Made by a program: the position numbers and the translations under genes. A DNA stretch of 64,000 nucleotides from Carcharhinus longimanus (taxonomy: Eukaryota): contig JASCQW010000081.1 of assembly GCA_030264375.1 (NCBI GenBank), positions 93,164,923 through 93,228,922 on the forward strand. Direction: 5' to 3'. Shown here one piece after another: positions 1 to 56,035 of this stretch. Position 1 is the first letter of the stretch; each line of letters opens with the position of its first letter. The notes under the pieces are model-generated. The model saw nothing but the letters and a program-made list of their open reading frames with translations. It was not told where the DNA came from and searched no databases.

Positions 1-1672
1 ATAGCAATTAAGTCTTAATGGGTATTTGAATCACAACACGAATGCTGTGAGTAACATAGTTTTCGTGGAAAATTGACTGACAGTAGTTGGCAGGAAATTG
101 GAGTAGTGATCACAATTTAACCGAATTGCAGACCAGTTTTGAAGGTCATATGTAATTAAAGTGCTGCAATTTGTTGAGATCTAAGTCTTAAACGATTTTC
201 TGCAAGGAAGGATTTTTTTTGTATTACGTCCTCAGGAATGGATTAGTAATATAGAAGGGCGAGGTAAAATGCACTTCTTCCGGAGTTGTCTTCCTGATCC
301 TATGGCAAATCGGCAGTGTTTCAAATTCCACCAGCAGCCATCAAGGCAAAAGATCCTGAAATTTAGCATCAATCCCAACGTGATATCATTACATATTCGT
401 TGATACAAATTTCATGCAGAGTTTCTGCCACGCCGGCTCCGTCAGTGTCCTCCCGCTCCTTCTAATGTTTGTGACGATATGTGTAGTGCACGTATGTTCG
501 TCCTGTAGTTTCGTATTTGCATGCTGATTGTCGAGACTGCAGTTTATTTTCATCACAACGCTCATCAGAAATAATTCCTGCTTTACCATGCGTACTGGTG
601 TTGCTGAAGTGTTCATATGTTAGCAGTTAATCTGTGTTACCGCATTATTACCATCAAATCAATGGGATTTAGATCAGGAGTTCCAGGCCTAAAGGTTAGC
701 AGAGCAAAACTGCAATAGAAGACTTCCACAGCAAATACGCGAAAGGCCCTTTTCAGTTAGTTTGCAAAAGAATCACGAAATTTAACCAGTAAGTAAGGAT
801 GAACATAAAGTAAAAAAAAAGACAATAATTGAGTGGCACGTGGGTTTCCATTGGAACCTAATTCGGCGACAGAATCAGCGGACAGAGTTGAAATTAAAGG
901 GCCGACTAAAATTACCTCTATCTTAGTCAAAAAAAAGAATGTTAAAGTAATATGGCGCCATTTAGGAATGAGTGCAAAGCCTATCTGGCAACGACAAGGC
1001 AATCTGTTCTTATTAATTATGCGAGAAAGTTTACATGGTGTAATTCTAAATAAAAGTTGAACTGATAACAAGAAATAACTCAAAATCAGTATGGATTTGA
1101 TAACAGGAAATTATGTGTGAATTGCTTCATTGAAATCCCTTTTGGTTGTTTAACAGTGATTTCACGTGGTATTCGGTTACTTTCCCCAGTTAAATCAGCA
1201 CGTTTCGATGTCATCTGAAATATGCCAATGCCTAAAGTTGATTCCGAAAGTGTGGGACCGTGTTTCATTTATGGATGTGTATTCGTGTCTCGCTTGACTC
1301 TACTGGAATCGACGAGTATGTAGCACGCCCACCGTCACCCTTCCAGAATTATCAGCAGAGAGCTGAAGGAGGGAGCCTACAGTGTAAACCGGCGTTGCTG
1401 AAACTGCACCTACATCTGTACTGGGATCGATTGTGTGTAGTTTATCTATCCTGCAATAAATCACCGCTGTGATTAGTCGCTGTCTCGATGTGAAACTTCG
1501 TCCTTCAGTAAAGAGTATTCAAGGACATGCGGAACATGTCTATAATGGGGTTTCAATAATGCAGCTGAAATTATGGCATTATTATAACATTCTCCGTTTA
1601 ATTATGGTATATTATATTTTTTCTCTACGTCATCAACCCTTATGCCTGACATGAATACATGGACATACGTAC

Positions 1673-1702
1673 CTATGAATTCTTCTTGCTGTGTGCCTGC
1701 GA
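1673..1702 (-). CDS. Candidate 30-nt phase-1 micro-exon, (I)AGTQQEEFI
   Basis: ttttcttacgttccag|tcgcaggcacacagcaagaagaattcatag|gtacgt; open in phase 1. Confidence 0.65.
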   Translation of the reverse strand, partial: SQAHSKKNS

Positions 1703-2005
1703 CTGGAACGTAAGAAAATCATGAGAAAAATAAAAACAGAACATGCAGAACATTTTTCCCCCGATCAATGTAACTATATGAAAAATGTAAGCAAAAAGAT
1801 GTTCCCTATAGCAATTAGTACACACGTCAGTCCAACAATAATGCCTTTAGAATAGTGAATATCACAATGTCAACAACATCTCCTTGGCAACCTGTTTGGT
1901 GCTTTTCCACGCAAGTTAACATTCCCATAATAGTAATTCATACATCGTATTCTTTGAAAATACGTTTCTTAAACCCACAATGAAACTGGAAAACCTGCGA
2001 CTTAC

Positions 2006-2032
2006 TTGTAACCTGTTCTTTGGATAGTTTTT
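2006..2032 (-). CDS. Candidate 27-nt phase-1 micro-exon, (E)KLSKEQVT
   Basis: ctgattttgtcttatatctacag|aaaaactatccaaagaacaggttacaa|gtaagt; consensus splice sites. Confidence 0.75.
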
Positions 2033-2511
2033 CTGTAGATATAAGACAAAATCAGAAGTTTGCCGAGAACAATGTGACAACAGAACATTAATCTGCACTG
2101 ACGAGTTTACCAATTTTTAGTGACACCCTTATTCACGATGTTTTCAGAATGAACATTGTGCATAAGGTTGGTTGCCAAGGAAAACAATACTACTTGGAAA
2201 GATTGCATAAATTGTCTTCATTCAAACTATCAAACACATTTCGTCTTAAAATATTGCCAGTAAGATTAGTGCAGCTCTGCGTATTGATGTTCATTAAAGC
2301 AGCAACATATTTTTTGTTCAGGCAGCAAACACCAAATTGACTGTTCGCGAATGTAATTTGCTAATGCAGATAAGTGAAGGTTTCCTAGGGTTAAGGAGTA
2401 TACTGCAGATAAATGTTAAAGGCGAACTAAGCAAGTTAATGGTGGAAAATCAAAAAATATCAAGATAAATTTCAGAAAAAAAGTATATATTTTTCAGTTA
2501 ACACATCTCAC

Positions 2512-2547
2512 CAGCGTCCGACAATTTTGTTTTCAGGCTCATAATTT
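2512..2547 (-). CDS. Candidate 36-nt phase-1 micro-exon, (E)IMSLKTKLSDA
   Basis: ctgactttgtttttaag|...gacgctg|gtgaga; paralog of 15124-15159 with synonymous codon changes. Confidence 0.8.
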
Positions 2548-2639
2548 CTTAAAAACAAAGTCAGTATGCACATCACATGTTAGAAACTGTGAAGGAGGTT
2601 TGCGTGTTCTGACATGAAAACAACAAAATAAAAGAAAAT

Positions 2640-2787
2640 GTTAGCAGGTCTGACAGCATTTGTGGAGAGTGAGGCTGCGTCAATATTTCATGATTCATAT
2701 TTTATAGGGCGTATCGGAAGTAGTTAAATAAGAACACAAGGTGTTAAATATATTTTTGTCTCAACAGATGCTACCAAACCTGCTAAC
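2640..2787. repeat. Imperfect inverted repeat, probable Penelope-type terminal repeat remnant
   Basis: Arms gttagcaggtctgacagcatttgtggaga (2640-2668) and tctcaacagatgctaccaaacctgctaac (2759-2787); resembles a common chondrichthyan repeat. Confidence 0.5.
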
Positions 2788-3409
2788 GTTTTACAATGCT
2801 TTCTGTTCTAAACAAAGAGAAAAGTTGTGCCACTGTTCAATGATGTTGACATACATTAATCTTGTAGTGGTCGTTATAAAACTTTCATGAAATTTTCATT
2901 CATTTGAAGAGTCCAAACTTCCACTTGGAAATAATAATTTTATTAATTTGTAGAAAAAAAAATCGGAATAAAACGTCACGCTGTTGTTTTTCAACATAAC
3001 ATTATCCTGAACGAAAATAAAATAGAGTTCATCAACTTTGCTGCTTACATTATTGTTCACTTATTCTAGAAAGCAAACATTTAACACCAACAAAATACGC
3101 ATATCATGGCTTGTTGCAAACCGATTTTGAATTTTGTGGCATAATCAATGCAACAGTTCAATTATGAATGCAAAAATTGAAATGTAGCATATACTTCACA
3201 TTTAAAGCAACTTAATAACCGTCCATGTACTAAATTTACTTTTCGATGTTTTGAGCAGGTGTAAAAGAACGTGTTTATGTTCCAGTCTCTGCACATGCAT
3301 AATATTGCACTGCACTATGCTTGCAGCTAAATTTATTTAACCTGAATTCCCGTTTATATTAATTAATTTGAAAAAAAAACTTCTGCACCTTTATTGGACA
3401 AAAATTACA

Positions 3410-4330
3410 CTATTGAACCTCTTAAAATTTATCAGATCATGACCAAAAATGTTGATGGACAACGAGAGAGATAGATAGTGGTAAGTTTGTGTGTTCGAAA
3501 AATAGAGTGATGACAATCTTTCACTGCGAGGGAGTATGTTTGCATGGTAAAAAGTGCATGAAGACTGGACAGAAATAGTTAGGTTAATTGAACGGAAACA
3601 TACCTGTCAAAATATGTTACAAGTCAGAGAATGCGAAATTGCCTATTTTCGGGAAGAATCGGCATACGCACAGCATCAAATAAGTGAGAAATTTCAGATC
3701 TCGAAAGGCAGAGTGACGTGCTTAACCCAATACATTAAATGCAATTACAGTGCCAGTAGAGCACGTATTTAGGAAAGCTTAAGCAATATTATCGGCTTTT
3801 TCTGAGTAGCACTGAAAATAGAAGTAGAGCGAATGAGCTTCAATTGTTCAGGTGGCCAGTGGGAACCATTTTGGATGACAACATATTGTGCATGGACACG
3901 TTATTTAATGAAGGATATAAAAACCGTGGAAGCAATTCACCGATGTCTTATCGTCTTATTAGGAAAGGAGGGACACGCTCGCCTTCAATCTGTCGGTGAC
4001 CATCATAAAATAAGTGAACTGACTGGGTATATAAGTTTCTGAGTCGTCTGGATAAGGTGCAGTTAAAACAGATTTTTCCATTTATGGGGTAATCTAGAAT
4101 TAAGATCCGTAGTTCGTCATTTAAAAAAAAACAGATGAATCGTTCGTTTCTTTCTCGCAAGTTGTCATGAGATTTGATTCAACTGTTCCTGAAAAGATGA
4201 TGCAAATAGACCTTTGAAAAAGATTACTCCTGGTAGAGTGAACAGAGCTGCGGTAAGCAAGGTGTGTTTAGATTATCGTTGTTACCCGATTTGAATACAG
4301 GACCGAATACAAGGCTTGAATACCGACTTC
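3410..4330 (+). mobile_element. Heavily decayed CR1 LINE 3' part
   Basis: Residual 'MLQVRECEIAYFRE' resembling CR1 'M.YNV.KCEV.HFG'; CR1-like downstream sequence. Confidence 0.55.
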
Positions 4331-4464
4331 AGGGTAGGATCAAAACAACTACGCCCGGATCAAACTGGAGGGTTTGCCGATCCTTCTGCTGCCGACCTTC
4401 CCGCTTCTTTATTGCAAGCTGTGAGCTTAGCTGATTGCAATAGACCCATGTGGAGATTACATAC

Positions 4465-4491
4465 CAGAATCTTTTTGCAATAATTGTCTCA
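4465..4491 (-). CDS. Candidate 27-nt phase-1 micro-exon, (V)RQLLQKDS
   Basis: ttttcccctttgattttcag|tgagacaattattgcaaaaagattctg|gtatgt; paralog of 17769-17795 (17/27 nt, Leu codons differ synonymously). Confidence 0.8.
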
Positions 4492-4639
4492 CTGAAAATC
4501 AAAGGGGAAAACAGTTTATTTGTTTCCACACGTTATCATGCATTTTATTTTACAAACTTTAATTGACACTGTAACATCAAACCAAGTAGAATAGATTAGT
4601 TGTACAGAGATGAGCTCACTCATTGCGGTCAAAGGCTGG

Positions 4640-4850
4640 ACGGCGACTCAATGGTTAGCATTGAAGGCTCTTGCGCTAGGGGCTCCAGCTTCAATTCAGG
4701 CCGTATGTGGAAATTATATATGCTGCCCGTGCCTGCCTGGGTTTCCAACGTACATGGATAAGATGTCCTGACAGAGAATCAATGCGAATACGATGGACTG
4801 AAGGGAGTAGTCCTATTCATCTGCAGAAGGTTCCTGCGCCCAGCAATACT
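4640..4850 (+). mobile_element. Decayed tRNA-derived SINE (HE1/V-SINE-like)
   Basis: Degenerate match to the intact SINE at 41651 (tggttagca...gggtttcc). Confidence 0.5.
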
Positions 4851-5383
4851 ACTTTCCTTTGAACTGAGCTGCTTGATGACAATTTCAGAGTTCTTAGTTC
4901 TGTTTGTACTCTTTACAGTGAACATCTCTTTCAGTCAACATGATGTGTGTTTCTTTGAAACAACTCCTGCAAAGAGCAATCACCTTTATGTTTCAATTCC
5001 ACAGCAATTGATATTTTTGAGGCATCATAAAAGAAAAATTGGCAATGAAACAGGATATCGTTTATCTCATTTGAATACCAAGAAAATTTCAAGAACACCA
5101 AGAAATACCAAGAAAAAGCTAGGACAAATCGTTCAGGGCCCTCAAACGTCGAATATTAGAACGCTGGGGAGAAGGGGTAAGTGAGATAAACGTTGAGGTG
5201 CCAGCGAGGGAAGACCACAGAAGAAAACAATTCTTTGTGAGTTTAGAAATAGGGTTCATTTTTATTTAGATAAACGTGAGACTTTAGACATTGATTTGCA
5301 TATATGAAAGGCAGAAATGTTTGATGTACTTCAAGGGTAATTTTAAAAAAAATCATAAATCCAGCCAATGGTCTACAGGTTGA

Positions 5384-5428
5384 CAGATAGGTAGCTAGAT
5401 AGGTAGATAGATAGATAGACAGACAGAT
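5384..5428. repeat. (AGAT/AGAC)n microsatellite
   Basis: Visible tetranucleotide run. Confidence 0.85.
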
Positions 5429-5784
5429 GCGCTGACCTGCTCGTACAGGCAAAAGAGATAGCGTGTAGTTATTGCCGATTTGTGTCTTCAATCAGTAAAG
5501 CAAAAAAAAATGTTCCTCTGCATCGCGTATTCTGCACTTTGGGAAAGAGAGCAACATTACAAATGGGTCGCTCATAACAATATTTATCCCTATAATATGA
5601 TGTAAATCATTTAATTCCTGAACGTTGGTTCATCTGGCAAAACCAGGAAACACAATTAAGATGGCTTGCAAAGATTCTTGATTGAAAAGCATGATGCTTC
5701 ATAACGAATAATCATCGTGGGACTGTTCAGGTTCCATTTAATGATTCATGTGGAAAGCAAACGCATTGCTCAGTCTGCGGCAAC

Positions 5785-5814
5785 CTGCAAAACGTTGATG
5801 CAACACTGCATTTG
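5785..5814 (-). CDS. Candidate 30-nt phase-1 micro-exon, (T)NAVLHQRFA
   Basis: aattgtatctttttcag|caaatgcagtgttgcatcaacgttttgcag|gttgcc; strong acceptor, weak donor. Confidence 0.45.
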
Positions 5815-6641
5815 CTGAAAAAGATACAATTTCATAATGCCTAGTTTGTGTACACAAAAAAGAAGATTGCTTGCTGAACATGCCTTGTCTCGAATGGTGG
5901 CCGTGGGAGCTGCAATATCGATAGAACTGACTGCCAAATTATCATCACAATTTTGTGCAGGAATGAAAATCCACTATTTGGAAATACCCACAAATGTCAA
6001 AACAACAATTCATATCTCAGGAATATGTCAAAATGGCTCATTCAGCGAGTGAATGCTGGGGGAAGGATTGCGGCAAATGGTGTCAGAGTGCAAGTCTTGA
6101 GCGATGACTGTTTCCCTGAGGATAACATTCAAAATAAGCAGATGAAAAAGAAATTGATTGTGATAAATGAAATTTGGATATATATGAAGAAAAGCATTAC
6201 AGATGTATAAAATAGAATGTGGAAAAATACAAGGAACTCCGCCTGAACGCATGGTATTTACAGGATGAATCATACAGATGCTGGGTAATTCCGAAATTAC
6301 AGGGATGACATATTAGGAAGTAAGTTGATACTGGTGTACTTTCTGAGTCTACATACCAAAAAAAAAGACACCGAATGTTTTTTGTTTAAAATGTGGTAAT
6401 AAAATTTTAAGTATATTCACGAGAGCGTTTTTGCGACTTAAATTTTACATCGTCATCAACATGCAGTCGAGGGGGCAAAAATATGAGATAGCCCTTCAGG
6501 TGGTGTGTTGTAATTTTTCTGGTCTTTTTAGGATACAATTGATAGAAAATATAAATATTAACTGGAGTGTTGTCAGCAGATTGTTCGATGTCAAAACTGA
6601 TGGAAAAGCTTTCTGAATAATTAGCATATTGCATTCGAAGA

Positions 6642-7625
6642 GGCTTAGTGAATTAAACGGAAGAGAAAATCAAGAGAAATCCTAATAGTCAAGCAAGATT
6701 TTTTTTAAAATCAAGAGTAGTGTCATATGAATACGGCCTCAAGAATAAACATGACTTGTTAACACTGGAGTGTTAGATCTGTGCACAGTCTGTGACGTGG
6801 CTTCACCCATTTACAAATACAATGAACTAAGATGGTTCAGCTCTGATTTGTGATTATGTTAAAACAACAATAAATACAGAGTTATGCATGCAAGAAATAT
6901 GTACCAAGTGTAATTTGATGAGCTACGGTAGCGTTTCCTGCTCACTCAGAGGTTAGGAAACTTGAAAGATCAACAGGAAATGACGAAAAATGCTATAAAG
7001 GAAAGTATGATAGGTTATGAGAGCAAGTTATTTCAAAATGCAGAAACAGTTAGTGAAAGTTTCTACATATGTAAAAATCGCAGCAGAGTAGCTATGGCAA
7101 ACATTTATCATTTAGGGGGTGATAATGGGTATCAATAACTGAAATTATGAAATGGTCGAGACATTGAACAGGTCGCTATTGTGTCGCTATTGTGACAAAA
7201 TGAATAGTATACTCCTCTCACAGAATTAACACTCAAGGAACGCAAGAAGATGAGCTTCCCTTTCATAATCAATTTTACCTGTGTGCGTACGTGAAATAGT
7301 ACCATCTGCCTATAGTAATTTTATTGCCGAATTTAAAATAGCCACCTGGGACTCTCTCTTTAAAATAACAAGTAACACTTTATTTTATCTAACAAACAGT
7401 GAACAGATTAAGTAAACGGCAAACAAACAGAATAAATCAGCATTTTATATTCGAAGAGATATTCGGCTTAGTGAATGAACTGGAAGAGAAAATCAAGAGA
7501 AAGCCTAATAGTCAAGCAAGATTTTTCTAAAATCAAGAGTAGTGTCATATGAATACGGCCTCAAGAATAAACATGACTTGTTAACACTGGAGTGTAAGAT
7601 CTGCACACAGTCTGTGACATGGCTT
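6642..7625 (+). repeat. About 160-bp direct repeat pair (6642-6803 and 7465-7625)
   Basis: Near-identical copies, both starting and ending in ggctt. Confidence 0.9.
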
Positions 7626-8320
7626 AAATAATAACAATTCTGACTTATTACCAATAATAAAATATAATTTTTAGTCACATTAAAAATGCAGTCAGATGTG
7701 TCGACTTCCTGGAATCGTTTTGCTTCTTTGATTTTGTTCTTGTGTCTTTTGAGAGGAAATAAGGCTTTCTCTTGAAACATGTATTGCGGCTGTCTCACTG
7801 GCAGGAAGTTATCTATTTACATCTCTCTAGCTGTGAGCTATGGCCTTAATTGGTGGAAGATGCAATGGCTGTTTTGTGACAGTTCGGAGCTGTGAGCTGA
7901 AGTGTTTAAACTCGCACTGACATACCAACATTCGTACAATAAGATTGGGTCACAGGTCATCAAAACATCAAAATCCAAATCCGATAGCCTGCTGATTTTC
8001 AAATGCCTATTTCAAATTATTTGGTTAAAATAAAAACATATTCTGGTTCAAATACCTGAAATCTGTTACCAATGTAACCCTAATGTCACCCGATGCCTTG
8101 TTTCAGTCTGAACTGGATTTTAGCACCTTTTTTTTATATATACAAACAAAACTCCTTTTCAGTCATCGCCTTTAAAACAAACAACTGTTTCACTCTTTTA
8201 CAACACTAACTTTGAAACATCTCCCCCTTTCCGTAAAGAAAATGAACCTTCATCATAAAAAAAATGCTTCATGCATTTTCTTCAGTTTAAATCGCGAAAT
8301 TGCATCCAGAATCATATCGA
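7191..8320 (-). mobile_element. 3' LTR (about 7191-8219), PPT and RNase H C-terminus of a Gypsy (Gmr1-like) LTR retrotransposon
   Basis: TG...CA termini; polypurine tract ggaaagggggaga abutting at 8220-8232; minus-strand DMILDAISR (cf. NVIADALSR) about 60-90 bp upstream. Confidence 0.6.
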
Positions 8321-8449
8321 TCCAGTGTCAGCTGTATTGGGAGGTGGAGGGGGATAACTATGTGAGGTTACAGGAGTAAGGCCTGGGGTGGTCAGTGCAG
8401 ACTTGTTGGACTGAATGGCCTCCTTCTACACAGTAGGATTTAATTGATT

Positions 8450-10075
8450 ATTTATATGATTAAAGGCAGACAAGTCCCCTGGCCCTGATGGAATGTATCA
8501 CAGGTTCCAAACAAAATGGTGGGGGAATTGTAAACGCATTTGTTGTAATTTACAAAACGTTGCTGCACTCTGGGCCATTCTTGCAGGTTGGAAAACAGCA
8601 AATGTAACACTATTGTTTACAAAGGGAGGTAGACACAAAACAGGAAAATATTAGTTGGGTAATTTAACATGTGTATTGTGGTAACTGCTTCAGTCTATGA
8701 TCAAGGACAAAATAGTGGGACTTCTGGGTGTGGGTTATCCCATTCGGATGACGCAAAGTGAGTTCATGACAGCCATGCCATTTTAAACTCGTTTACTCCA
8801 ATTATTTCAGGACATTCCCAGCAGAGCTTGATGTGGTATACCTGGATTCCCAGAAGATAGTCAACAAAGTTCTGCACAAAAGGCTGTTGCATATGATAAA
8901 GTTGTATAGCATAATGACTCATGCACTGGCATGGGTAGAGGATTGGTTAACTAATCAAAAAAGCAAAAATAGGGTAAATTGAATTTTTCCTGATTGGCAA
9001 TCAGTGACGAGTGTTGTGCCTCAGTTGTCAACATTGGAGCCGCAATTGCTTGCAATTGACCAAAATGTTTGTTGTTTCGGAGAAAGTGCAAGTGTGTCAA
9101 AGTTTGCAGATGACATTAAGATGAGTTACAAAACTAAATGTGCAGAGAACACTCAACGTCTGCAAACGGATACAGTTATTCGAAGGGAGTGTACGTGGGT
9201 CTGTCAGATTTGGCACACCTTTGGTAAATGTGAGATCATCCATTTTTGTAGGATCAACAGAACAATGACCCATTATTTAAATGCTAAATGTTGCAGCTTG
9301 CTGCTGTGCACAGGGTCCTGGCTATCTGTGTGCATAGGGTTCGCAAAACGTTGGTTTGCAGGTGCAACAGGTAATTTGGAAGGCAAGTGGAATTGTGTCC
9401 TTCATGGCTGGAGGGAAGGACTTTAAAACTGGGATGTCATATTGCAGCTATATAAGGTGCTGGTGAAGCCACACCTGGAGTACTGTGTACGGATTTGGTT
9501 TCCTTACTTAAGACATAGCATACTGGCACTGGATGGGGAGTGGTGGCTGGGGGGCAGGGGTGGGGGGACTTGGTGAAGGGGTGCACATGAGATTCACTAG
9601 GTTGATTCCGGATTTGAGTGGGTTGGCTTAAGAGGAGACATTGTTTCGACTGGGACTGTATTCCGTGGCATTCAGAAAATGAGTGGGGATTCTGTGGACA
9701 CATAATCATGAAGGGTATAGATAGATAGAAACAGGGTGATTATTGTCACTGTCAGTTAAACTGAAATCGAGACATTGCCTCAATATGAGGGGTGCAAAAT
9801 TTGCGACTAATTTGAAGAGGAACTCCTTCAACAAAAATGTTGTGATCTGTAGAATTCCCTGCCCAGTGAAGATGATGCAGCTACCCATTGATTTGTTTTA
9901 CTTTCAGGGAAAGATATATGTTTAAACAATAACGGGATTAAGGGATATGGTGAGTGGGCGGGTAAGAGGAGTTGAGTCCATGGAAATATCAGCCATGATC
10001 TTATTGAATGGCGGGACAGGCTCAAGGTGCCAAATGAAATCCTCTTGCTACTATTTTTATGTTATTATGTTCTGA
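8450..10075 (+). mobile_element. CR1 LINE ORF2 (RT) and 3' UTR, decayed
   Basis: DKSPGPDG, VTSVVPQ, KFADD, KCEIIHF, VKPHLEYCV motifs; CR1-type tail. Confidence 0.9.
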
Positions 10076-10100
10076 ATGAGCATTGCACGTCATTACTTAC

Positions 10101-10127
10101 TGGTCGATTGAAGCAGTTTTCTGCATT
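10101..10127 (-). CDS. Candidate 27-nt phase-1 micro-exon, (E)CRKLLQST
   Basis: tttcttattattttccattag|aatgcagaaaactgcttcaatcgacca|gtaagt; paralog of 19451-19480 (20/27 nt). Confidence 0.8.
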
Positions 10128-11499
10128 CTAATGGAAAATAATAAGAAACATTGCAGTAAATAACTAAAACCTCATAACGGATCAAACAATGAAATTACAA
10201 TGCACGAAAATCATTAAATGAAACATGACATGGGAGGGAAATGTTTAATGCATTGCAATACATTGCTATTTTTTGACAGTTACATATTTCAATATTTGCC
10301 TAATTTGTAAATTGATTTTTTTTTGGCGGGGGGGGGGGGGTGGGGGGCGTGCGTTGCAAGATGCCGATGTGTCTTTCGTATGGAAGCACATTATACCACG
10401 TAACCAACAGATAGTCTCCTGAGATCGGAAGATCCTCGACGTGCAACTTGTGTCAAATTGCGGAAACAGAATTGCCTGATTCTGTCCACGTATATTAGAA
10501 ATTTGAGGGTGTTGAAAAATGTGTGGAAGAGGGAGCAATTGACAATTGCCCGAATGCACACACAACAGTTCTACCGGCGAGGAAAAACGCGATGCTCATG
10601 ACAGTCCGATAAATGTTTTCCGCCAGGCTAAATAATTCAAATATCTCTCCCTCACCTGAGGAGGATCTGTAATGTTGTGGAAGGATCGAAGTTTAAGTAC
10701 ATGTTGTAGGCTGGAGGTACAGACCTGATGGTAGTGATATCAATTTATTTCCATCATTTGGCTCACTAGGAACTTCTTCCGTGATAAATGTTTGCAATTG
10801 GAGTAAAATGCTCTACACGTTGATGCATGGATGCTAAATTGTTGCCATCAAATCCACAGGAATACAAAACTTGAACTCGAGGCTTAGAGGCAATTCTGGC
10901 GCATGCGTGGTGCATTTTCAGAGAGGATTGATAATTTAACTTTGTTGAAACGAAATTATGTCTTTCAAGGTTATAATCAGACACTGTTTTCCATGTCAAT
11001 AATTGAATGATTAGTGGTTTGGCAAGAGGACATCATTTGGATAGAGAGTACACACATTACTATAATGAGAAAACAAGCAACAACAATCTCCTAAATTAAA
11101 GATGAAGACACACACGCACAAAATTAAAATATATCACATGGCAACATTTCGCATTTTCAACTCTTGGCAGGCAATCGACAACGAATCGTACAAAGACATG
11201 ACAATCTCTGGTGGTCAACGCTGTGGGTAACGCAGCCCTGTATAATTTTGAATCAATTCAACTGCTAATGAGCACTACGTTAAAGTGAGTTGAAATTTGG
11301 TGAAGAGACATCATAAGCGAATAACTTCCTTGAAATGTTCTTATTTTCAGAGCAGAAGCACGGTTCATCATTATATAGAAAGATAGAGCATATAAAATAG
11401 CAGCAAGAAAAGTAGCGTTCCCCGGCCAATTGCAGACAACCCATGGGAGGCTGCACCAAAAACCATTATGACACTGGCTAATTATGGAACTCTGCAACT

Positions 11500-13830
11500 T
11501 GCCCCCGCGTTCCCGCCCATATCCTTTGAAGTCTTTATACCTAATAGTAAAATCTAACTATTGATTGAAAACAAGCAAAGTCTTGGTCTCAAATGCGTTA
11601 GGGCAATCCATAGGCTTACCATTCCCTCCGTAAAGCATTTGTTCCTCCTCTCAACTGCAACCACCTTGCGTGTCTTTCTACCAAAGTGATTAAGCACTCG
11701 TTTTTTTTTTAACTGCAAACTACTACTTCTGCAACACATTTCCTCACTCGCACAAAGTATTCCAATCGCACTGAAAAATCTCTGCATCCTTCTGCCTATT
11801 TGCTCTCCTATTCAGCTTCGTGTCATCTGTAAACTTGGAGATACTACATTCAGTTTCCTCATCGAAAGCATTACAAAACAAAACATTTTACATTGCTGCA
11901 AGGCTGCCATTGATCACTGTGGCGTCCCACTATTTCCTGTCTGCATTTTTTAAAGTGCCGTTCCCCATGTAAATCCAAAAGCCCTAACCTCATGAAGTTT
12001 AATTTTCCACGCTAATTTCCAAAGTTCATTTTCTTTTTTAGAGATTCTTCTAAAATCCAAATGTATTATTTCCACACGTTGCTCCAAATCAACTCTACTC
12101 GTTAAGTGGTCGAAACATTCTCGTGGTTTCTCAAGCGTAATAATAACGCTTTCATAATTCCGTTCTAACTCTTTCCGATTGTCCCATCATTTTCCAAGAC
12201 TTCTGCTTTGAAATACTTCGTATTAGACTCCAGCATTTTCGCAACCAATCCCCACCAACCGACGCCAGGATCACTGGCCTATCATTTCCTTTTCCCGCTC
12301 TACCTGCGGTTTTAAACTATTGTTACAACAGCTGCTTTCAAATCCAAATGAACTTGCAGAACCGATATAACGTTTGGAAGATAAACACCAACGCATCCAA
12401 CTTCTTTTTCAGTGCCCAGTCCTTGTGGTCTCTGGGATATAGATTATCAGTTCGTGGGGATTTATTGCCCTACAATTCCATTAATTTCCCCAAGGCATCG
12501 TTCTTTTTTTACCTGAATGACTCTGATCTTCACTGCTTCCATTTTACTAAACCATGCATTCCCACATACTGGTACGTTGTTCTGTGCGCTCATGTTTGAT
12601 GACAAACGAATGCACGTATTAAGTTAGTTAGCCATTTCCTTGTTCCAACGTTGTCAGTTTATATGCTTCTGACTGATTTCTTCACTAATCTTTTCTTTTC
12701 ACTTATGTGTGGATATGTTTGCAGTCAGCTTTGATCTTTGATTCCGTGCAAGCATACTCTCATATGCAAATATGCACACACCCCCAACATACGCAACCCG
12801 CTCCACCCCCTCCTTCCACTCCCCGCATTCTTAAGCACTCTATTTGTCATTTTCTGCTGAATTCTAAACAGGTCTCCACTTTGGCTCTGGCCATGTTGCA
12901 CGTGTCTTCTCGAGGCTTATGTCTGATACTGTCCCTAATTTCCCTCGTAATACATTGTTTGTCAATTCTTCCCTTCCGATTTTTGAACCAATCAAGAAAC
13001 ACCATTTGTTGCAGTTTTTATCAAGCACTATTTGAATTCTTGCCATTTCCTGTCGAGCCCCATTCCTTGATGTAGCGTTCCCCGGCCAATTGCAGACAAC
13101 TCGGACCTCACAACACTGTTGTTTAGATTTCGGATCCCTGTCTCAGAATCAATTACATCGCCTTCCGTCTTGATGACGAATTCTATCATATTATGTTTGC
13201 TCATCTCCGACGGTTTTTACTCAACGAGAATGTCAATTGTGCCTACTTAATGTCCCAATGCACTGTCTCGAATGGTGTGCACTCTTATTGGTTCCTCAAT
13301 GCCGTGATTCAGAAAATTATCTCATGCACACTCTAAGAAACTGTCTCCGCAGGTATTGTGACGATCTTGATTATTCCAATCTATATTCAGATTGCAATTG
13401 CCCATAATTGCAAATGTTTCTTTGTCGCATCCATCTGCAGTTTTCTGTATAACGTCATTCTCAACATCATCATTACATTTTGGTTCTCGACAGATAAAAT
13501 CCGCTAAGCTCTTTGGTGCTTAGCTCAGCTCTACCAGCAAATTGCCTACCAATACTACTAATGCCTTCCCTACTGTTCCATTAATTTCCCCCCTTTTTTC
13601 CAGCAATGCAGCTCCACCATGTTTTCATATTTTTTCACCAGTGCTTCTTTAATACGGTAAACTCTTGAGTTTCCATTTCCCAGTCCGGGAATAGTCACCC
13701 TGTAGTCTTGTTCCCATGAACTTGATTGTGTCATAACCTTTTTTTTGTCAATTGTGGATGAAATAAATGTACAATATTGCGGATATTGTCTGTATGAAGA
13801 AGCAAAGTATCTTTAACCTTACCTGTCTCA
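11500..13830 (-). mobile_element. Decayed CR1 LINE ORF2 fragments
   Basis: 'FTEGMVSLWIAL' 3' motif, degenerate KFADD near 11830, endonuclease-like sequence toward 13100-13800. Confidence 0.7.
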
Positions 13831-13899
13831 TTCCTGTTTTTTTTTGTTACTTTTGAATCTAGTTAGCTCCTGGATCTTCATACGTCTGCCTATCATTTT

Positions 13900-14110
13900 T
13901 CTTACTCTTGTTTCTCGATTTGGCTCTCATCATTGCTGCCCCCATCCTTGCAGAGTTTGCCTTCCCACTGCCTGTAATTTTGAAGCCTCCACAACCATTC
14001 TCTACCTGAATCCCCTGAGCACATCCGTCCTTGCCCTTCAGTGGTGCAAGGCAAACTCTATGCAGACGTCCTACCTCTTCATATCCGCCCCAATCATCCA
14101 CAAATCTGAG
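13900..14110 (+). mobile_element. Penelope-like GIY-YIG endonuclease C-terminal remnant
   Basis: 'LPTACNF...TSVLAL' resembles Penelope 'LPVACHF...LSVLGL'. Confidence 0.45.
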
Positions 14111-14380
14111 GTCTTCCCCTTCTTCAGTATCCTTCCAGACACAGATTGAACTCGTTTGTGTGTGTTTTTGGGACATCTGAATTTCTAATCTTTATAAGTA
14201 ATTAAAGTGATACAAAGAAGTTTAATCAAGATGTCGAATATTTCGATGAACAAGATGAATATGATTTCATTATACACTAAGTTATAAATATGAAGCAATT
14301 ATATCTCTATATTCTAATATCGTCACTGCGCATTCCACGGCTGCCTACATTGAAACAAAAAGAAGAATGCAATTACGTAC

Positions 14381-14404
14381 CAATCAAGTGATTGAGTTGA
14401 CCAG
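14381..14404 (-). CDS. Candidate 24-nt phase-1 micro-exon, (A)GQLNHLI
   Basis: taatttctcgttacag|ctggtcaactcaatcacttgattg|gtacgt; same length and cassette position as 20543-20566. Confidence 0.6.
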
Positions 14405-15123
14405 CTGTAACGAGAAATTAATTTTAATAGTACATGGCAGATAAGGTGCATCTTACATGTAAGATGCGTGCGGCATTGATAGATAGAGATCAATTTAATA
14501 AATGATAATAGAGACGCTGTGTTGTAGCAAATAACAAATGTACCAATTCTGCAGGAGTGCCGTTTTAGAAAAGTGTATCTCACAAAGGTAAACCAAAGCA
14601 AACCATCCCACTCAGCTATTTGCCTCGCTACACAACTTTGAGCTAATTGGATCTCATAATACATATACTTTGCAAACTATTTCCCAAAGTTCACAGTGAA
14701 AATGTACAATTTGTACGTTAACTGACGATTTCCTGCTGGAATCTATAGAGGTAAGTTTCATTTGTCAAGAAACAAATCAGCACTCGTTAGCTACTCTTTG
14801 CATAGATTACTGTTTTCAAATATGTAAATGAGCGATTTATTTATATGTCAGCAATGTTTGCTGGAAGTTTCAGAAGTTTTCTAAAAAAAAATGTGATTTT
14901 GTTAACAAATAAAATGAATATGCCGAATATTTTTTGATAAAAAAATATGGCGCACATTCAAACAGAATGAAAAACCCATATTCCTGAACAGCTCCAAAAA
15001 CATCATCGGCACATGGAATGGTCATAAACATTGGGGCGAACTGAGAGAATGCAGCGGTGGAGAAAACACGAGATGTCAACAGAAATGTGTGACAAGCAAA
15101 TATGTCAAAATAGAGAATCTTAC

Positions 15124-15159
15124 CAGCTTCCTTCAACTTTGCCTGTAGGGTTACTATGT
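15124..15159 (-). CDS. Candidate 36-nt phase-1 micro-exon, (D/N)IVTLQAKLKEA
   Basis: gaatttgttttcaag|acatagtaaccctacaggcaaagttgaaggaagctg|gtaaga; paralog of 2512-2547. Confidence 0.8.
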
Positions 15160-15904
15160 CTTGAAAACAAATTCAATAGGCACGTTATAATGGGTGGTTG
15201 TATTCTCTTCGAAACAGCTAACTCATAATTCAACGAAAATTACAAGTCAGTGTTCGGTGGTTCTACGATACTGTAAATCATAACTTAATGGCTCTCCTAT
15301 TGAGAAATTGGGATTATCGCAAAGATCACTTCTCAATCTACCTTGACAGTTTCCACGTGCGTTTACATGACAATTATCCATAAGGCATAACGTCCCATGA
15401 CCATTGGGTTAGAATGGGATTCATCAGCTAACGTAAATGAAAAGGATAACTTTGTATGGTCCTGAGAGTTAGAGATCATGAGCGCACAGGAAATTTTAGA
15501 ATGGAAAATAAAATCTTCTCACTTAAATTCAACTAATTAATTACAGACCTAGGCCAGTGAGACACGAGAAACGTCAAACACCTTGAAGTCTTCGGCGGGA
15601 GTTTGTTAATCACTTTGATGCAACCAACCATAAATGCGACCAACAAACGTAGGAAATCAGATTTTCCCGAACTGACCACCAAACTCAACTCTTCCCCACA
15701 ATGATCGGACCTGGCCGGCGCTGGCCGTGATGCAACACCACCGAGACACATCCAACACGTCGCATCCTGTGCCCGAAGCAGGGCAAGACCCCGCCAGAAC
15801 AGGCCCGACATGACTGAGGTAACCTACTCCATGCTTCAAATGAGCCAAAACGACAACACCCACGACCGGAGCCAACATCAGCCTTACCCAACCGCCCTCC
15901 CCCC

Positions 15905-16004
15905 NNNNNNNNNNNNNNNNNNNNNNNNNNNNNNNNNNNNNNNNNNNNNNNNNNNNNNNNNNNNNNNNNNNNNNNNNNNNNNNNNNNNNNNNNNNNNNNN
16001 NNNN
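15905..16004. other. Assembly gap (100 N) with duplicated flanks
   Basis: The same about 48 bp (cacccacgaccggagcc...) lies on both sides. Confidence 0.95.
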
Positions 16005-16114
16005 CACCCACGACCGGAGCCAACATCAGCCTTACCCAACCGCCCTCCCCCCACCGCCCCCCCCCCCACCCCCCGCCTCCCTACCAACCCCGCTGCCGTC
16101 ATTACCCAATTCTG

Positions 16115-16460
16115 AACAAGAACATAACAACTAGAAGCGAGGGTAGGACATTTGGCATCTTGAGCATATTCCGCCATTCAATGACATCATGGCCGAATTA
16201 TCATGGACGGAGCTTCACTCACCCACCCGCTCACCACATCACCTAATTCCTTTATTGTTCAAAGATATCTTTATTTTTGCCTGAGAAACATTCAAAAAGG
16301 TTACCTCTACTGTTGAACTGGGCAGGGGATACCACAACCTACCTGCCTCTATCTGATCTAGCTCCTTCAAAATGTTACATTAATCCATAACATTCCCCCA
16401 TGCTTCTAAATTCCACTGTCAATAATCGCAATCTACGCAGCCCACTGATACCATTTAAGG
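16115..16460 (-). mobile_element. CR1 3' end
   Basis: Reverse complement of the CR1 3' UTR (aagaacataacaactagaagc...ccgccattcaat). Confidence 0.7.
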
Positions 16461-17447
16461 CTGACTGTACGTGCACCCTGTCCCAACATCTCATTCACTT
16501 AGCTTTGAGATTTGTCTTCTCCCGTTCAATAGTTCATTTAATGTTAGCTGCGTAATTGCTGATTGTGCAGTAAAATGACAGGTACCGCCTCTTTGCGTAT
16601 TTATGTGTTTCACTGAGGGAGATTCTGAAATATTTCACTACCTCAGTCTCACTCGCCAATTGTGACAAATTTTAGGCATACAGGATCTCAGAATTCCAAT
16701 CGGATGTCAGTCGCTAACTAATGACAATTTGCTGCTCATTGTCGCCCCAATGAAGTTACAAATCCGTAGGTCGTTGGCAAAAAAATGGACCATTCAACTG
16801 ATCGAGTCTGCTCTGCCATGAATGAAATCATGACTGATCTGAAATTCCACGACAACATGTTTCCAGTTTTTTCCAAAACCATGATTTTCCACTGATATAA
16901 AATCTGCATATCACATTTTTCACCACACATCTCATCCACCATAACCTTAAATGGTAAGTCATTCCATGATGCATGACCTTGCTACAAGAAACTCCTTCAT
17001 CCTGCCTTAAATGGCCGACTGTATACCCCGAGATTATGCCTTCCGACCCTCGGATAATGGGGAAACCAATGATCAGGACTCTTCCTGTCAAGCCTCCAAG
17101 GAACTATATGCATATCAAAAGAGTAATCTCTCATTCTTTTGAACTTCAATGTTAAAAGGTCCAAACTGCTAAGCCTGCTCTCAGAAGAAAATACCTCCAA
17201 TCTAGGCATCAACATAGGGAACCTTTTTTTGTACTGCCTTCAATACCACTATATGTATCTTTAGAGAAGCGGTCTAAAACATTTCACAATATCACGTAAT
17301 ATGTTCGATGTTGGTAGAAGTGAAAATTGTGTCTAGGCTGCACTGTATGCAATCTGTGCCTGACTATTAAGCTTTCCCAAAATGTGCGTTCTACAAAAAT
17401 ACGTGTTACAATCCCAGAAATATTGGCAACGCAAAGCACTTCATTAC

Positions 17448-17474
17448 TCAAAGAATGGAAAACCTTTGGAGTAC
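17448..17474 (-). CDS. Candidate 27-nt phase-1 micro-exon, (G)TPKVFHSL
   Basis: ctgcttccttttgatttag|gtactccaaaggttttccattctttga|gtaatg; no paralog seen. Confidence 0.4.
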   Translation of the reverse strand, partial: VLQRFSIL

Positions 17475-17768
17475 CTAAATCAAAAGGAAGCAGGATGGAC
17501 AAAGCACAATCTATCATTATACTACAATTTAATGTAGTAGTGACTCAACAAGGAACAACAAAAAACACATCATTGGAATAAGATTGTGGTCCCTCCAAAA
17601 TTCGGCAGATCATGGTGACATCAGTAAAATAAAAAAAAAGTCTGAGCGTATACCTGTATTCTGTCACTTTTAATGCACCCTTCCAGATGCCTGTTTAATA
17701 TGGCTAATATCCCTCCTTTCGTCAGCTGTGAGCTTTGCTGCGTATGTACACATTTGCAGATCACATAC

Positions 17769-17795
17769 CCGCATCTCTCAGGAGAAGGTGTCTCA
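17769..17795 (-). CDS. Candidate 27-nt phase-1 micro-exon, (M/V)RHLLLRDA
   Basis: ttatttgcttccctttcag|tgagacaccttctcctgagagatgcgg|gtatgt; paralog of 4465-4491, with some upstream intron similarity. Confidence 0.8.
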
Positions 17796-19450
17796 CTGAA
17801 AGGGAAGCAAATAACACACAGTGCCAATTTTGTTTCCGAACATTGACATGTTTAAGAATTTGACGGAATATCACTTAAAAACGCATATAGCCGTTTGCAT
17901 ATCGAATTATAAGGCAAAATTCAATTATTCCAAAAAAGAAGCTAATTTCTCCTGGTGAATATGACTATCTGCAATTCAATTTGTTTACAGTTCTACAAGG
18001 CAAACATTTCCATAGAAAGTTTATATCTTATCAAAATAACTACCATTCTGATCATGATTAGCTACGATTAATAATGCAAATGTTATCCAGGGTGAAATAT
18101 GTATACAATAGTAATATTCATGATTCTCGGTTACATGAACAACCGGACCATTCACTGTTGGTCGTGTTGAATTAATTTTTGACATCCTGCATTACGTATG
18201 ATTCTACTGAACTTTGCTTTGTATCATCTCGGATCCGAGTGTGGGGAAGACAATATGTATAATTGTGCACAACTAATTCGTCCAATCGGTCGTTCACTCA
18301 AAATTAATTGATGCGATCATTTTTCATGATCATCACTACAATTATCTGTACAGTTCACTTTTTGTCACATCTATTCATTAGAAAGACGCTGCAGATGTTT
18401 CTATTTGCAACCATGATCTAGTTCGAGCAGTCTTCTCTCATTGCATTCATTGATTTAAACAAAAACGGGTCCTTCGCTTTTGTTTTGGTTGCCAGTTGTT
18501 CCTCGCAGTCTTAAAGTGGTGACAAGCTTTATTTTCGTTTCCTTTAGTTTTTGATTACTGCACTGGTTCTTGAGCTAACTAACTCTCCTATTAATTATGT
18601 AGCTTGTGATCACGTCCATTGCATTTGGCACCGGCGCCATAATTATTTTGCCTATTGCACTTTTCACTTAAGTTGTATTTAGGCGCGCGTCAACTTGAGT
18701 GGCGACAGCCATATGGCGGTGCATGTGCAAAGAAGTGAGGGTGAAATTTGTCAGTGTATATTCCATGCATAATTTAGCGTTGGCCATTTATTGACCATTT
18801 CAGTGAAGTTACCGTCCAATATCAACTGGTGGACCGAGAAAGCGCTTTAACTTCGTGTCCACGGGATCTCGAAGATATTCCGCCCCACTGATCCCCTCCT
18901 TCCCCCAATTTTGCTTCTATCCTACCATCTTATCCCAGTCCCTCGGGCCACATTTTTTTCCCAAGCTGAGATTGCCACATTGCAGCGACCACAGAAATGT
19001 TGGTAAATTAGATTGGCACACCATTGTCTCAGGTGGGCCGTCCCATCGAAGAAAGGGTGGAAGTAGTCTGGAGGAATTTCTGCCTCCATTTACTTAACAT
19101 TCGAAGGAGCACCAATTAGCTGATTTGCAGCAAACAGAGGTTGTTTTTTTTTTCCCGTCAACCATTCAAACGATGGTGTAGGCGTCCCGCCAAAATCACT
19201 GACCCATTTAAACAACATTATCTAAAATAACCATTAATTCGATTGACTTGATATCTGAACCTGCGCTTTGCGATAACTTTTTTTTAATTATTCCAATTTA
19301 TTTCAAACTTTGGTTGATGACTGATATTTATCGAATAGTGCAGATCACGATTCAATTAGAAGTGCATAATTTTTCTTTGCAAACTGTGCCAATACTCTCA
19401 ATCTTTAAATGGAAACATGAGACAATATATGACTCTCTGATGGGACTTAC

Positions 19451-19480
19451 TTGTTCTTTGGAGAAGTGTTCTGCATTCAT
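19451..19480 (-). CDS. Candidate 30-nt phase-1 micro-exon, (N)ECRTLLQRT
   Basis: tttacaacatttttag|atgaatgcagaacacttctccaaagaacaa|gtaagt; paralog of 10101-10127. Confidence 0.8.
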
Positions 19481-20542
19481 CTAAAAATGTTGTAAATGCA
19501 TAAAGAAAAATAAGAACACAAAATTAATTGTAAAACAATGCCATTCTGGACATCTGATGCCTGTCTTTGTCATGTCATTTAATTTAATTGTGTTCCGTCT
19601 TTTCATCGCCGTTTGTGAGCTTTGTAGTAGTAGAGTAGTAGCAATTTTCCGGAGATCCATATGATAGGCAATGTCAAATGTTCTTCCCTAGTTACATATC
19701 TTTTAAATGCATAATAAAGTAAAATCCAGTCAAAAGTAAACATTTTGAAATAGCATTTTTTCCCAAAATTGATGGTGCAACTCTATTGGCACTTAATCGG
19801 TATTTATTTCCTATTTTACGAAAAAATAAAACAGTTTAATTCGGAGTATCAACAACTTTGAGGTAATACGTTCAAGTATTTGATTCCAGAAATGACAGTC
19901 ACTAATGCAATCAAAAATCATCCCTCCACACGTTAAGTGGATGTGATATCGTTTAATCCCGCCACAAATCTTTCATTTGACAAACATTAGGAAGAGTCAA
20001 AGTATAATTTAGTTCCTCTTTAAATCAGCTCACATATTTCCAATTATAAAAAAAGATGAGCAGGTGATTTAATGAAGCCGACAATTGGCACGTTGTATCT
20101 TTGATGGACTATTTGTTAATTTACGGCTGAACATTTTTTTGAATGCTTTAGCCTTTTTGCTTTCAGCGAATTTAGAAAATATGAAATATTCCTACGCTCT
20201 TACCTCAAAGGAGGCTGCCGGTTTGAAAAGGTTTTTCGAACGTATCAAAAAGCGGTGCATGTGTTTTATGTGAGACAGACGGGATTCCCAGCATAAGCAT
20301 CCAAATCAGCAGGAATATAATGGGTATTACAAACGCAGGCTGTACATAATTCAGTTTATAGAAACATTTCTCGAAACGTTGGCACTGTTTCGCCTGCTTA
20401 TGCCCGGGTTGTATGATCGTCCTGACATATTTCCAGCGAAAGCACTCCACCTGCGCTATTTTTAGAGCAGTATGGCTTAGTATACGTTACTCAGGCAACT
20501 TATCCCATAATGCAGAGCACAAAAATTAAAATGTATGCTTAC

Positions 20543-20566
20543 TCAGGGTTGCTACAGATTCAGTTA
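20543..20566 (-). CDS. Candidate 24-nt phase-1 micro-exon, (V)TESVATL
   Basis: tttttgtttctgtttgttttag|taactgaatctgtagcaaccctga|gtaagc; only phase 1 is open. Confidence 0.7.
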
Positions 20567-21660
20567 CTAAAACAAACAGAAACAAAAACCTCATTGCATA
20601 TTTTCTAGCAGTTCATCAACGTTAAGATTACAAAATATAATCGCAGACATTTTAAACCAAATACATTAATTATGGTTATTTTTGTAAATTTTGCACAAAT
20701 CGCATTAATGTTTTTGCAATATCACATCTTCTTCTACGCATTGCCGACTGAACTTGCGCATTAACCTTAAGAAAATATTGAACACGGACTCCCAAGTCTA
20801 TTTGTGTTTCTGATTTCCTAAGTTTTTCCCCATTTTAAAAATAGTTTATGCCTCCATTCCTCTTTCCAAACGACAAAGCCTCATACTTTTCCACATTGGG
20901 TAAAGAATTGGCAGATGAAATACATTCTCTTAACCCTGATACATCAGGGATCTAAAGTTCCTGTATAACAACAACGTACCTAGGGCTTTGATCTGCCAGT
21001 AACTTCTTTGAAATAAAGTAAGAATATTATCATAGATGGTGCCACGGAATGCAAAGCATGAGGAATGGTTGATACTGGAATAATAGTCGACCTACAAAAT
21101 AAGGGGGGACTCTATGCGTGAAGCAACAGGAGTAGTGGTAAGGGGTCTCTTCGGTAGTTCTCCACGTCTTCATCCATGTGTTGCTCAACAAATTCCATGC
21201 AACGCTGGATTGCACGTTTTGGGAAGAGTATTTCCAAAGTGGCCGAGGAGGCAAAGAATTGGCTCATAACTTAAATAAATTAACCAAATTAGAATTTCAA
21301 GAGTCGTTGTCTTGAAATCTATCGGGCCTTTTATCGCAACCAACATAAGGCACTTTGGAACAAAACAATGCAGTATGCATCAAGGACCACTGCACCGACA
21401 AGTTTAAATAATTAAGTGTTGATGCAACTTGTGTATAGAATATTGTGTGCCTAAAAGAACGCACACCAACGTCCACTTTTAGACCAGAAAGGACCAAAAC
21501 AATGATCAGTAGGGATGAACAACATTCCCTCTCCCAGCATGCCCACCACATGCCCCTCCACCAACACCCTAGTCCCTCCACTCCCCTCACCACTGCCCCC
21601 ATAGACCAGCCAGTTAAAGAAATGTAAGGATCTTCACATAAGAATCAGTACATCATTTAC

Positions 21661-30652: not shown

Positions 30653-30670
30653 CGCTTGACGTTGACTCTC
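30653..30670 (-). CDS. Candidate 18-nt micro-exon, xESTSS
   Basis: atcgctgcag|gagagtcaacgtcaagcg|gtaagt. Confidence 0.4.
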
Positions 30671-47881: not shown

Positions 47882-47908
47882 CCGAAGTAGCTGCAAGTCT
47901 CTTCGCAT
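47882..47908 (-). CDS. Candidate 27-nt phase-1 micro-exon, (D)AKRLAATS
   Basis: ttattgtgtttactttcag|atgcgaagagacttgcagctacttcgg|gtaaga. Confidence 0.7.
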
Positions 47909-50204: not shown

Positions 50205-50222
50205 CTTCAGTATCAAATAATG
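50205..50222 (-). CDS. Candidate 18-nt phase-1 micro-exon, xLFDTE
   Basis: ttctaacttcttgtcag|cattatttgatactgaag|gtatga; ctaac branch-point motif. Confidence 0.6.
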
Positions 50223-56011: not shown

Positions 56012-56035
56012 CTGCTAATTCCTTTATCAACTTTG
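56012..56035 (-). CDS. Candidate 24-nt phase-1 micro-exon, xKLIKELA
   Basis: ttttctttctgttgctcgtttctaacag|caaagttgataaaggaattagcag|gtaaca. Confidence 0.75.

Follow-up and report, generated by a model that had tools for sequence, protein, structure and literature searches.

The genome of Carcharhinus longimanus raises, in one 64,000-nucleotide (nt) stretch, the question of whether a trio of very short exons that occurs there twice still encodes part of a protein, and what kind of gene it belongs to. This stretch, called the window below, covers positions 93,164,923-93,228,922 of contig JASCQW010000081.1 (C81); window coordinates below 1 lie outside it. The trio, or cassette, consists of phase-1 micro-exons of 27-36 nt on the minus strand, with copies B1 and B2 in the window and copy B3 outside it. 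We conclude that the cassette is real, old and selected, and that it lies in a large, poorly annotated elasmobranch gene family. The reading that we prefer, with a probability of about 75%, is that it is a protein-coding module under purifying selection, likely the start of a coiled-coil helix, in a micro-exon gene of ~520 kb (gene B) which likely encodes a long soluble rod; complete elasmobranch members of the family end in a SPRY/B30.2 domain.

An earlier sequence-only reading had described three exon pairs recurring in the same order. All six paired exons were found, on the minus strand and with AG/GT sites (Table 1). The first pair exists, with a correction of its lengths: its members measure 30 and 27 nt, owing to a one-codon shift of the acceptor. 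In the peptide assigned to the B2 member (starting at 10127), the first residue is encoded across the splice junction. Both 36-nt exons do use an AAG acceptor, as had been noted, and the third copy in gene B uses CAG. The two 24-nt exons, which had been presented as a further duplicated pair, share 4 of 24 nt and are not homologous. When they were compared with shark and ray proteins, 70% and 38% of 150 random peptides scored as well; their status as exons is less sure, and they probably encode unrelated linkers. A search of the rest of the scaffold revealed a third gene-B copy just outside the window, with exons at window coordinates -411, -15290 and -16906, which makes the cassette at least triplicated in this gene, and 12 whole or partial copies across the array described below.

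Paired exons were 67% identical over 90 aligned nt. When read in phase 1, B1 and B2 were compared over 27 codons without any stop, and the proportions of changed synonymous (pS) and nonsynonymous (pN) sites were 0.64 and 0.27, a ratio of 0.42 (Fisher p=0.004), with 15 of the 29 differences at third positions. The phase 0 frame contained 8 stops and gave a pN/pS of 1.21, and the phase 2 frame gave 2.76. The excess of synonymous changes is therefore specific to phase 1, the only stop-free frame, as the sequence-only reading had supposed. A phase-1 pN/pS of 0.53 was found for the three gene-B copies, whose pairs are not independent, and one of 0.50 (p=2.5×10−5) for 18 colinear exon pairs of two paralogous genes, C and D.

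Exon identity was 0.63-0.74, compared to 0.47-0.57 for the 120-nt intron flanks and 0.49-0.51 (standard deviation 0.03) for shuffled sequences. Flank identity is at or just above the shuffled level and below exon identity, which agrees with the view that the introns have largely diverged. Whole paired introns gave alignment scores of 27 (27.9 when shuffled) and 36 (24.8 when shuffled); they do not align past the exon edges, and they contain high-copy sequence. Self-BLAST detected a single intron remnant (81 nt, 73% identity), which surrounds the 27-nt pair and is a trace of duplication at the DNA level.

The cassette also occurs in spliced proteins of two catsharks and an electric ray, where both its frame and the residues at the exon junctions agree with those in gene B. 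The RefSeq models of the family are XP_038671249.1, XP_038671248.1 and XP_038673008.1 (S. canicula), XP_072329362.1 (S. torazame) and golgin-like or trichohyalin-like Narcine models, such as XP_069775420.1. The two cassette copies of the window are identical to shark and ray cassettes at 16-19 of 29-30 residues. XP_038671249.1 contains four cassettes, and its SPRY domain has 63% identity with that of gene D. This gene maps onto the model exon by exon (82 minus-strand versus 4 plus-strand candidates in 270 kb); the earlier exons of gene D match XP_038671248.1 by eye. These two models have consecutive accessions and are probably halves of one gene, and the RefSeq models of the family probably are fragments of longer genes. 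The first exons of gene B match XP_038673008.1, which begins with the peptide of its ATG exon. In a cassette tree (29 residues), two subtypes were separated, each present in shark and ray, although the support of the fork (90/96) is below the strict mark; because both subtypes occur in both groups, the tree suggests that cassette repetition predates the shark-ray split. Nine ray isoform models, which we infer to rest on transcript data, differ, besides their alternative ends, by single in-frame blocks of 8, 8, 11, 12 and 23 residues. Ancient cassette duplication followed by protein-level constraint on the exons, as originally proposed, is thus borne out by frame-specific selection, by diverged introns and by the spliced homologues.

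To place the cassette in its gene, 1.89 Mb of DNA was examined, continuously at 92.685-93.729 Mb and nearly so at 91.88-92.485 and 94.20-94.39 Mb. Phase-1 micro-exons, mostly of 27 and 36 nt, extend on the minus strand from ~94.34 to 92.00 Mb, over ~2.35 Mb. In 264 kb, 18 candidates of the 27-nt class were scored on the minus strand versus none on the plus strand. Among adjacent exon pairs, 27/36 neighbours were commonest (63), with 40 pairs of 27/27. A degenerate pattern of cassette exon 1 gave 4 matches in the 2.68-Gb genome, all of them in the array and on the minus strand, and a control gave 0. Such matches might be attributed to chance or to transposon remnants, given how short the exons are and how many repeats surround them. 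This explanation has practically no standing: enrichment is specific for strand and length, the genome-wide pattern is confined to the array, and the spliced homologues in three species refute it.

The array is made up of five or more paralogous units in tandem: U, A (which may hold several genes), B, C and D. They contain respectively 1, 3, 3, 1 and 4 of the 12 cassette copies, and the full set of three exons was not recovered from every copy. A start exon, longer than the micro-exons, is present in three copies (93.338, 92.765 and 92.400 Mb, in genes B, C and D), each with exactly 118 nt from the ATG to the phase-1 donor. Its profile retrieved 3 proteins among 1.84 billion representatives, all from catsharks and all at residues 1-39, and no match to a 57-residue start exon was obtained by word search, in the ESM Atlas or in Pfam. 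No RNA record was listed for the region of the start exon, which speaks neither for nor against expression. The start-exon peptide has an invariant tyrosine in a YxN context, which we take to be a candidate SH2 docking site.

Instead of separate genes, the whole cluster could form one transcription unit with alternative start exons, in which the units devoid of a SPRY exon splice into downstream segments. Start exons would then feed ~400 frame-preserving micro-exons along the 2.35-Mb locus, and splicing would pick the exons and the SPRY head. All segments are indeed on one strand and in phase 1, each ATG exon can also be read as a 132-nt, stop-free and frame-preserving exon, and genes A and B show no terminal domain. 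However, C and D are whole-gene duplicates, including the DNA upstream of the ATG exon, each of U, C and D has its own SPRY exon, the ATG exon is where the database models begin, and exon-poor intervals of 48-58 kb part the units. A single unit is therefore quite improbable; if it existed, it would produce molecular rulers of very different length, by a design akin to that of the clustered protocadherins, applied to a coiled coil.

The SPRY exons of gene U (94.267 Mb) and gene D (91.991 Mb) are intact. That of gene C, at 92.430 Mb (C81:92,429,743-92,430,153, minus strand), is broken by stops and frameshifts, although the early micro-exons of C still show a pN/pS of 0.50 compared to D. Scores for PF00622 were 46.6 bits for gene U, 39.3 for gene D and 33.8 for the catshark protein P0001 (cut-off, 26.3), and no match to Pfam PRY was found on SPRY exons of the family. 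In a midpoint-rooted tree of 25 rows, the SPRY domains of U, D and the catshark grouped with six exons from another contig, C119, in one clade (100/99), apart from the TRIMs and from three butyrophilin (BTN)-type rows. Given this separate clade, with six more members on another contig, the ligands may differ from those of TRIMs and butyrophilins. The six C119 exons of this divergent clade are spread over 6.3-11.3 Mb (L170-L175), possibly as a second cluster of the family. Dozens more SPRY exons flank the cluster on C81, between 85.9 and 102 Mb, and the three of these that were included in the tree fall with TRIM/BTN-type domains.

A Pfam scan of P0001, P0043, P0049, P0054 and P0055 detected only SPRY, with no immunoglobulin (Ig), RING or B-box domain; for RING and B-box, the test covers these five database members, and no start was found for genes U and A. 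No transmembrane (TM) segment was detected in six proteins, where the highest hydropathy over 19 residues was 0.54-1.28. In two N-terminal catshark models, the ATG exon comes first and the coil follows directly. The simplest interpretation is a rod of segmented coiled coil, soluble and topped by a SPRY head. Alternatively, the micro-exons may encode the cytoplasmic tails of true butyrophilin or BG-type membrane receptors, whose Ig and TM exons were missed. Such receptors have the same design, phase-1 heptad micro-exons followed by B30.2, and among solved structures, the SPRY exon comes closest to BTN3A1/3A3 and TRIM21 (top PDB match BTN3A1, E 2×10−14). But next to the ATG exon of B, C or D no conserved hydrophobic or extra exon was found, the catshark models, which have this ATG as their first codon, are hydrophilic over their whole length, and the SPRY domains do not group with those of butyrophilins, so that we hold a membrane receptor to be very unlikely. 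The stalk of a type II lectin or Ig receptor was considered as well, and rejected, as no TM, lectin or Ig exon was found.

How could a soluble rod be built from such exons? The hydrophobic period was 3.40-3.52 in four database proteins. In a low-confidence fold model of the catshark protein, three cassettes were located after a loop, where a helix begins or close to that point, and the fourth 16 residues into a helix. These positions fit with the divergent 24-30-nt exons between copies likely encoding flexible hinges. As all the exons are in phase 1 and have lengths divisible by three, exons or blocks should be free to be duplicated, skipped or lost in frame. A 27+36-nt pair encodes 21 residues, that is three heptads, so that the helical register should be kept too. 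Early on, the cassette would have been repeated 3-4 times at the DNA level; tandem duplication of whole genes would have followed, and the introns would have drifted apart with selection holding the exons. The products may be cytoplasmic coiled-coil dimers, serving as length-variable spacers with a SPRY ligand-binding head, in analogy to a butyrophilin tail minus its membrane part; we give this function an even chance. The family would be an unusually clear example of a protein shaped by the gain, loss and skipping of micro-exons, at the level of the exon, of the three-exon cassette and of the whole gene, with frame and heptad register kept. The family fills more than 2 Mb of an elasmobranch chromosome, yet databases hold only fragments of it, under misleading names that were assigned automatically (A33-like, CENP-E-like, golgin-like), and no description was found in the open-access full-text literature.

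Several observations weigh against a functional gene B encoding such a rod. The joining of its exons in C. longimanus is deduced from relatives, and between the stretches given above, ~0.65 Mb of the cluster is represented by 10-kb samples or not at all. The fold model, made of long helices, is of low confidence (pLDDT, the predicted local distance difference test, 52.7; pTM, the predicted template modelling score, 0.23), and its SPRY part is not folded. Nor do the models from S. torazame and the ray have a terminal SPRY domain. For gene B, no SPRY exon was found by genome search, tblastn, hidden Markov model (HMM) or blastn, in an interval where 12,470 of 55,701 bases are N; none was found downstream of gene A either, in an interval that holds 13,569 N, nor did any counterpart of the last four micro-exons of gene D appear after gene A or gene B. 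Furthermore, at window coordinates -62,000 to -173,000 of gene B, one 27/30-nt exon is repeated ~40 times in tandem, together with its intron. This block evolves near neutrality (pN/pS 0.84, p=0.22, for 14 pairs from the 29 intact among 43 listed matches), and has several dead donors and one in-frame stop between intact splice sites. Its introns still align at ~62-73%, and it is younger than the cassette copies.

The negative searches for a SPRY exon, the near-neutral block with its stop-bearing exon and the stops and frameshifts in the SPRY exon of the neighbouring gene C would suit a decaying paralogue, whose synonymous excess would be a relic of the past and which would no longer make a useful protein. 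We consider decay unlikely. All three gene-B cassette copies keep open frames and GT/AG sites, gene B has 81-101 stop-free exon candidates over 520 kb, depending on the threshold, versus 9 on the plus strand at the looser one, and the catshark has a model of its N-terminus. A weaker argument comes from the DNA of a related species, ~5% diverged over window positions 1500-21000 (1,359 differences): in two exons (57 nt), a single synonymous change was seen and indels were absent, for ~3 changes expected and with 40 of 44 differences listed. If gene B is functional, either its SPRY exon is hidden in an assembly gap, or its product is a headless rod that pairs with paralogues. A terminal exon shared by A, B and C was sought and discarded, none being conserved, and the read-through tail after the last exon of gene B has no paralogue. 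The repeat block also displays many tandem (NAGNAG-type) acceptors and some GC donors, as in a micro-exon nursery or graveyard.

Table 1. Exons of gene B in the window and start exons of the array (window coordinates, unless a locus is given).
Feature	Position	Strand	Remarks
Cassette copy B1, exon 1	19451..19480	-	30 nt, phase 1-1; acceptor one codon upstream compared to other copies
Cassette copy B1, exon 2	17769..17795	-	27 nt
Cassette copy B1, exon 3	15124..15159	-	36 nt, AAG acceptor
Cassette copy B2, exon 1	10101..10127	-	27 nt
Cassette copy B2, exon 2	4465..4491	-	27 nt
Cassette copy B2, exon 3	2512..2547	-	36 nt, AAG acceptor
Probable 24-nt linker exon before B1	20543..20566	-	Strong acceptor, weak donor; no homologue
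Probable linker exon of 24 nt that separates B1 from B2	14381..14404	-	Glu codon of the following exon completed by the final base of the linker
27-nt exon after B2	2006..2032	-	One synonymous change in the related species
30-nt exon leading into B3 (or 24 nt via inner acceptor 1696)	1673..1702	-	Matches the acidic stretch preceding the cassette in catshark and ray
24-nt coiled-coil exon of gene B	56012..56035	-	Counterpart in paralogue D and catshark proteins
Candidate 27-nt exon	47882..47908	-	Good splice sites, no clear homologue
Candidate 18-nt exon, uncertain	50205..50222	-	
Candidate 18-nt exon, uncertain	30653..30670	-	Weak acceptor
Start exons	L032:9142-9258, L063:1501-1617, L064:1456-1572	-	Conserved N-terminal peptide

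Three further exon candidates (55770-55744, 46409-46389 and 21690-21661) were judged doubtful and left off the table, and a 221-nt candidate for an N-terminal exon (window coordinate 521,588) was rejected, as it has no Pfam match and looks like a decayed long interspersed nuclear element (LINE). Two isolated coding fragments were seen in introns of gene B. One is WD40-like (L004:3745-4119, minus strand, window ~-26,250 to -25,880), with weak PDB matches to WD40 proteins, and presumably resembles WDR76; the other, of importin-alpha type (L006:5951-6403, minus strand; Pfam Arm_3, E 6×10−10), is probably an inserted gene piece. A local direct duplication of 197 nt, 89% identical, is present in an intron (window 6615-6803 and 7430-7625), and an AT-rich intron contains a 91-residue open frame (L003:8087-8359, minus strand) with a sub-threshold Pfam PPPI_inhib match (E 0.007). 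Upstream, the neighbours of the array are a ZIP transporter exon (weak Pfam match) and an RRM/zinc-knuckle gene, which we take to be RBM4.

Coiled coil and SPRY are combined, as in the shark and ray family, in TRIM proteins and in the RING-less teleost "zinc-binding protein A33", with a domain identity of 27-38%, and many TRIM-type SPRY exons reside on the same chromosome as the cluster. The family differs from TRIMs by the absence of RING and B-box in the Pfam scan and by its separate SPRY clade. In guinea-pig enterophilins, which are soluble, a long leucine zipper is combined with a B30.2 domain. By this architecture they would be the nearest functional analogue, but they are mammalian and much shorter. 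An interaction of enterophilin-1 with SNX1 is mentioned in an excerpt of one report (PMC13749957). Butyrophilins have a few heptad repeats followed by a B30.2 domain, according to excerpts of PMC4046983, and have been reported in cartilaginous fishes, in a paper whose excerpts mention nothing like the micro-exon family (PMC12841164). BTN1A1 and BTN3A, with their few heptads, possess Ig and TM domains, whereas the shark and ray SPRY domains form a separate clade (100/99). In chicken BG genes, as described in excerpts of two papers (PMC5938342, PMC4046983), the coiled-coil tail is encoded by 13-36 exons per gene, of 21 nt (sometimes 18 or 24), together with signal peptide, Ig-V and TM exons and a final 3′ untranslated region (UTR) exon, and the soluble tail, or "zipper protein", acts on actin-myosin. 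In the shark and ray family, exons are mostly of 27 or 36 nt, number at least 80 and span 400-500 kb, no Ig or TM exon was found, and complete members end in SPRY. Both systems nevertheless make a heptad coiled coil out of small phase-1 exons.

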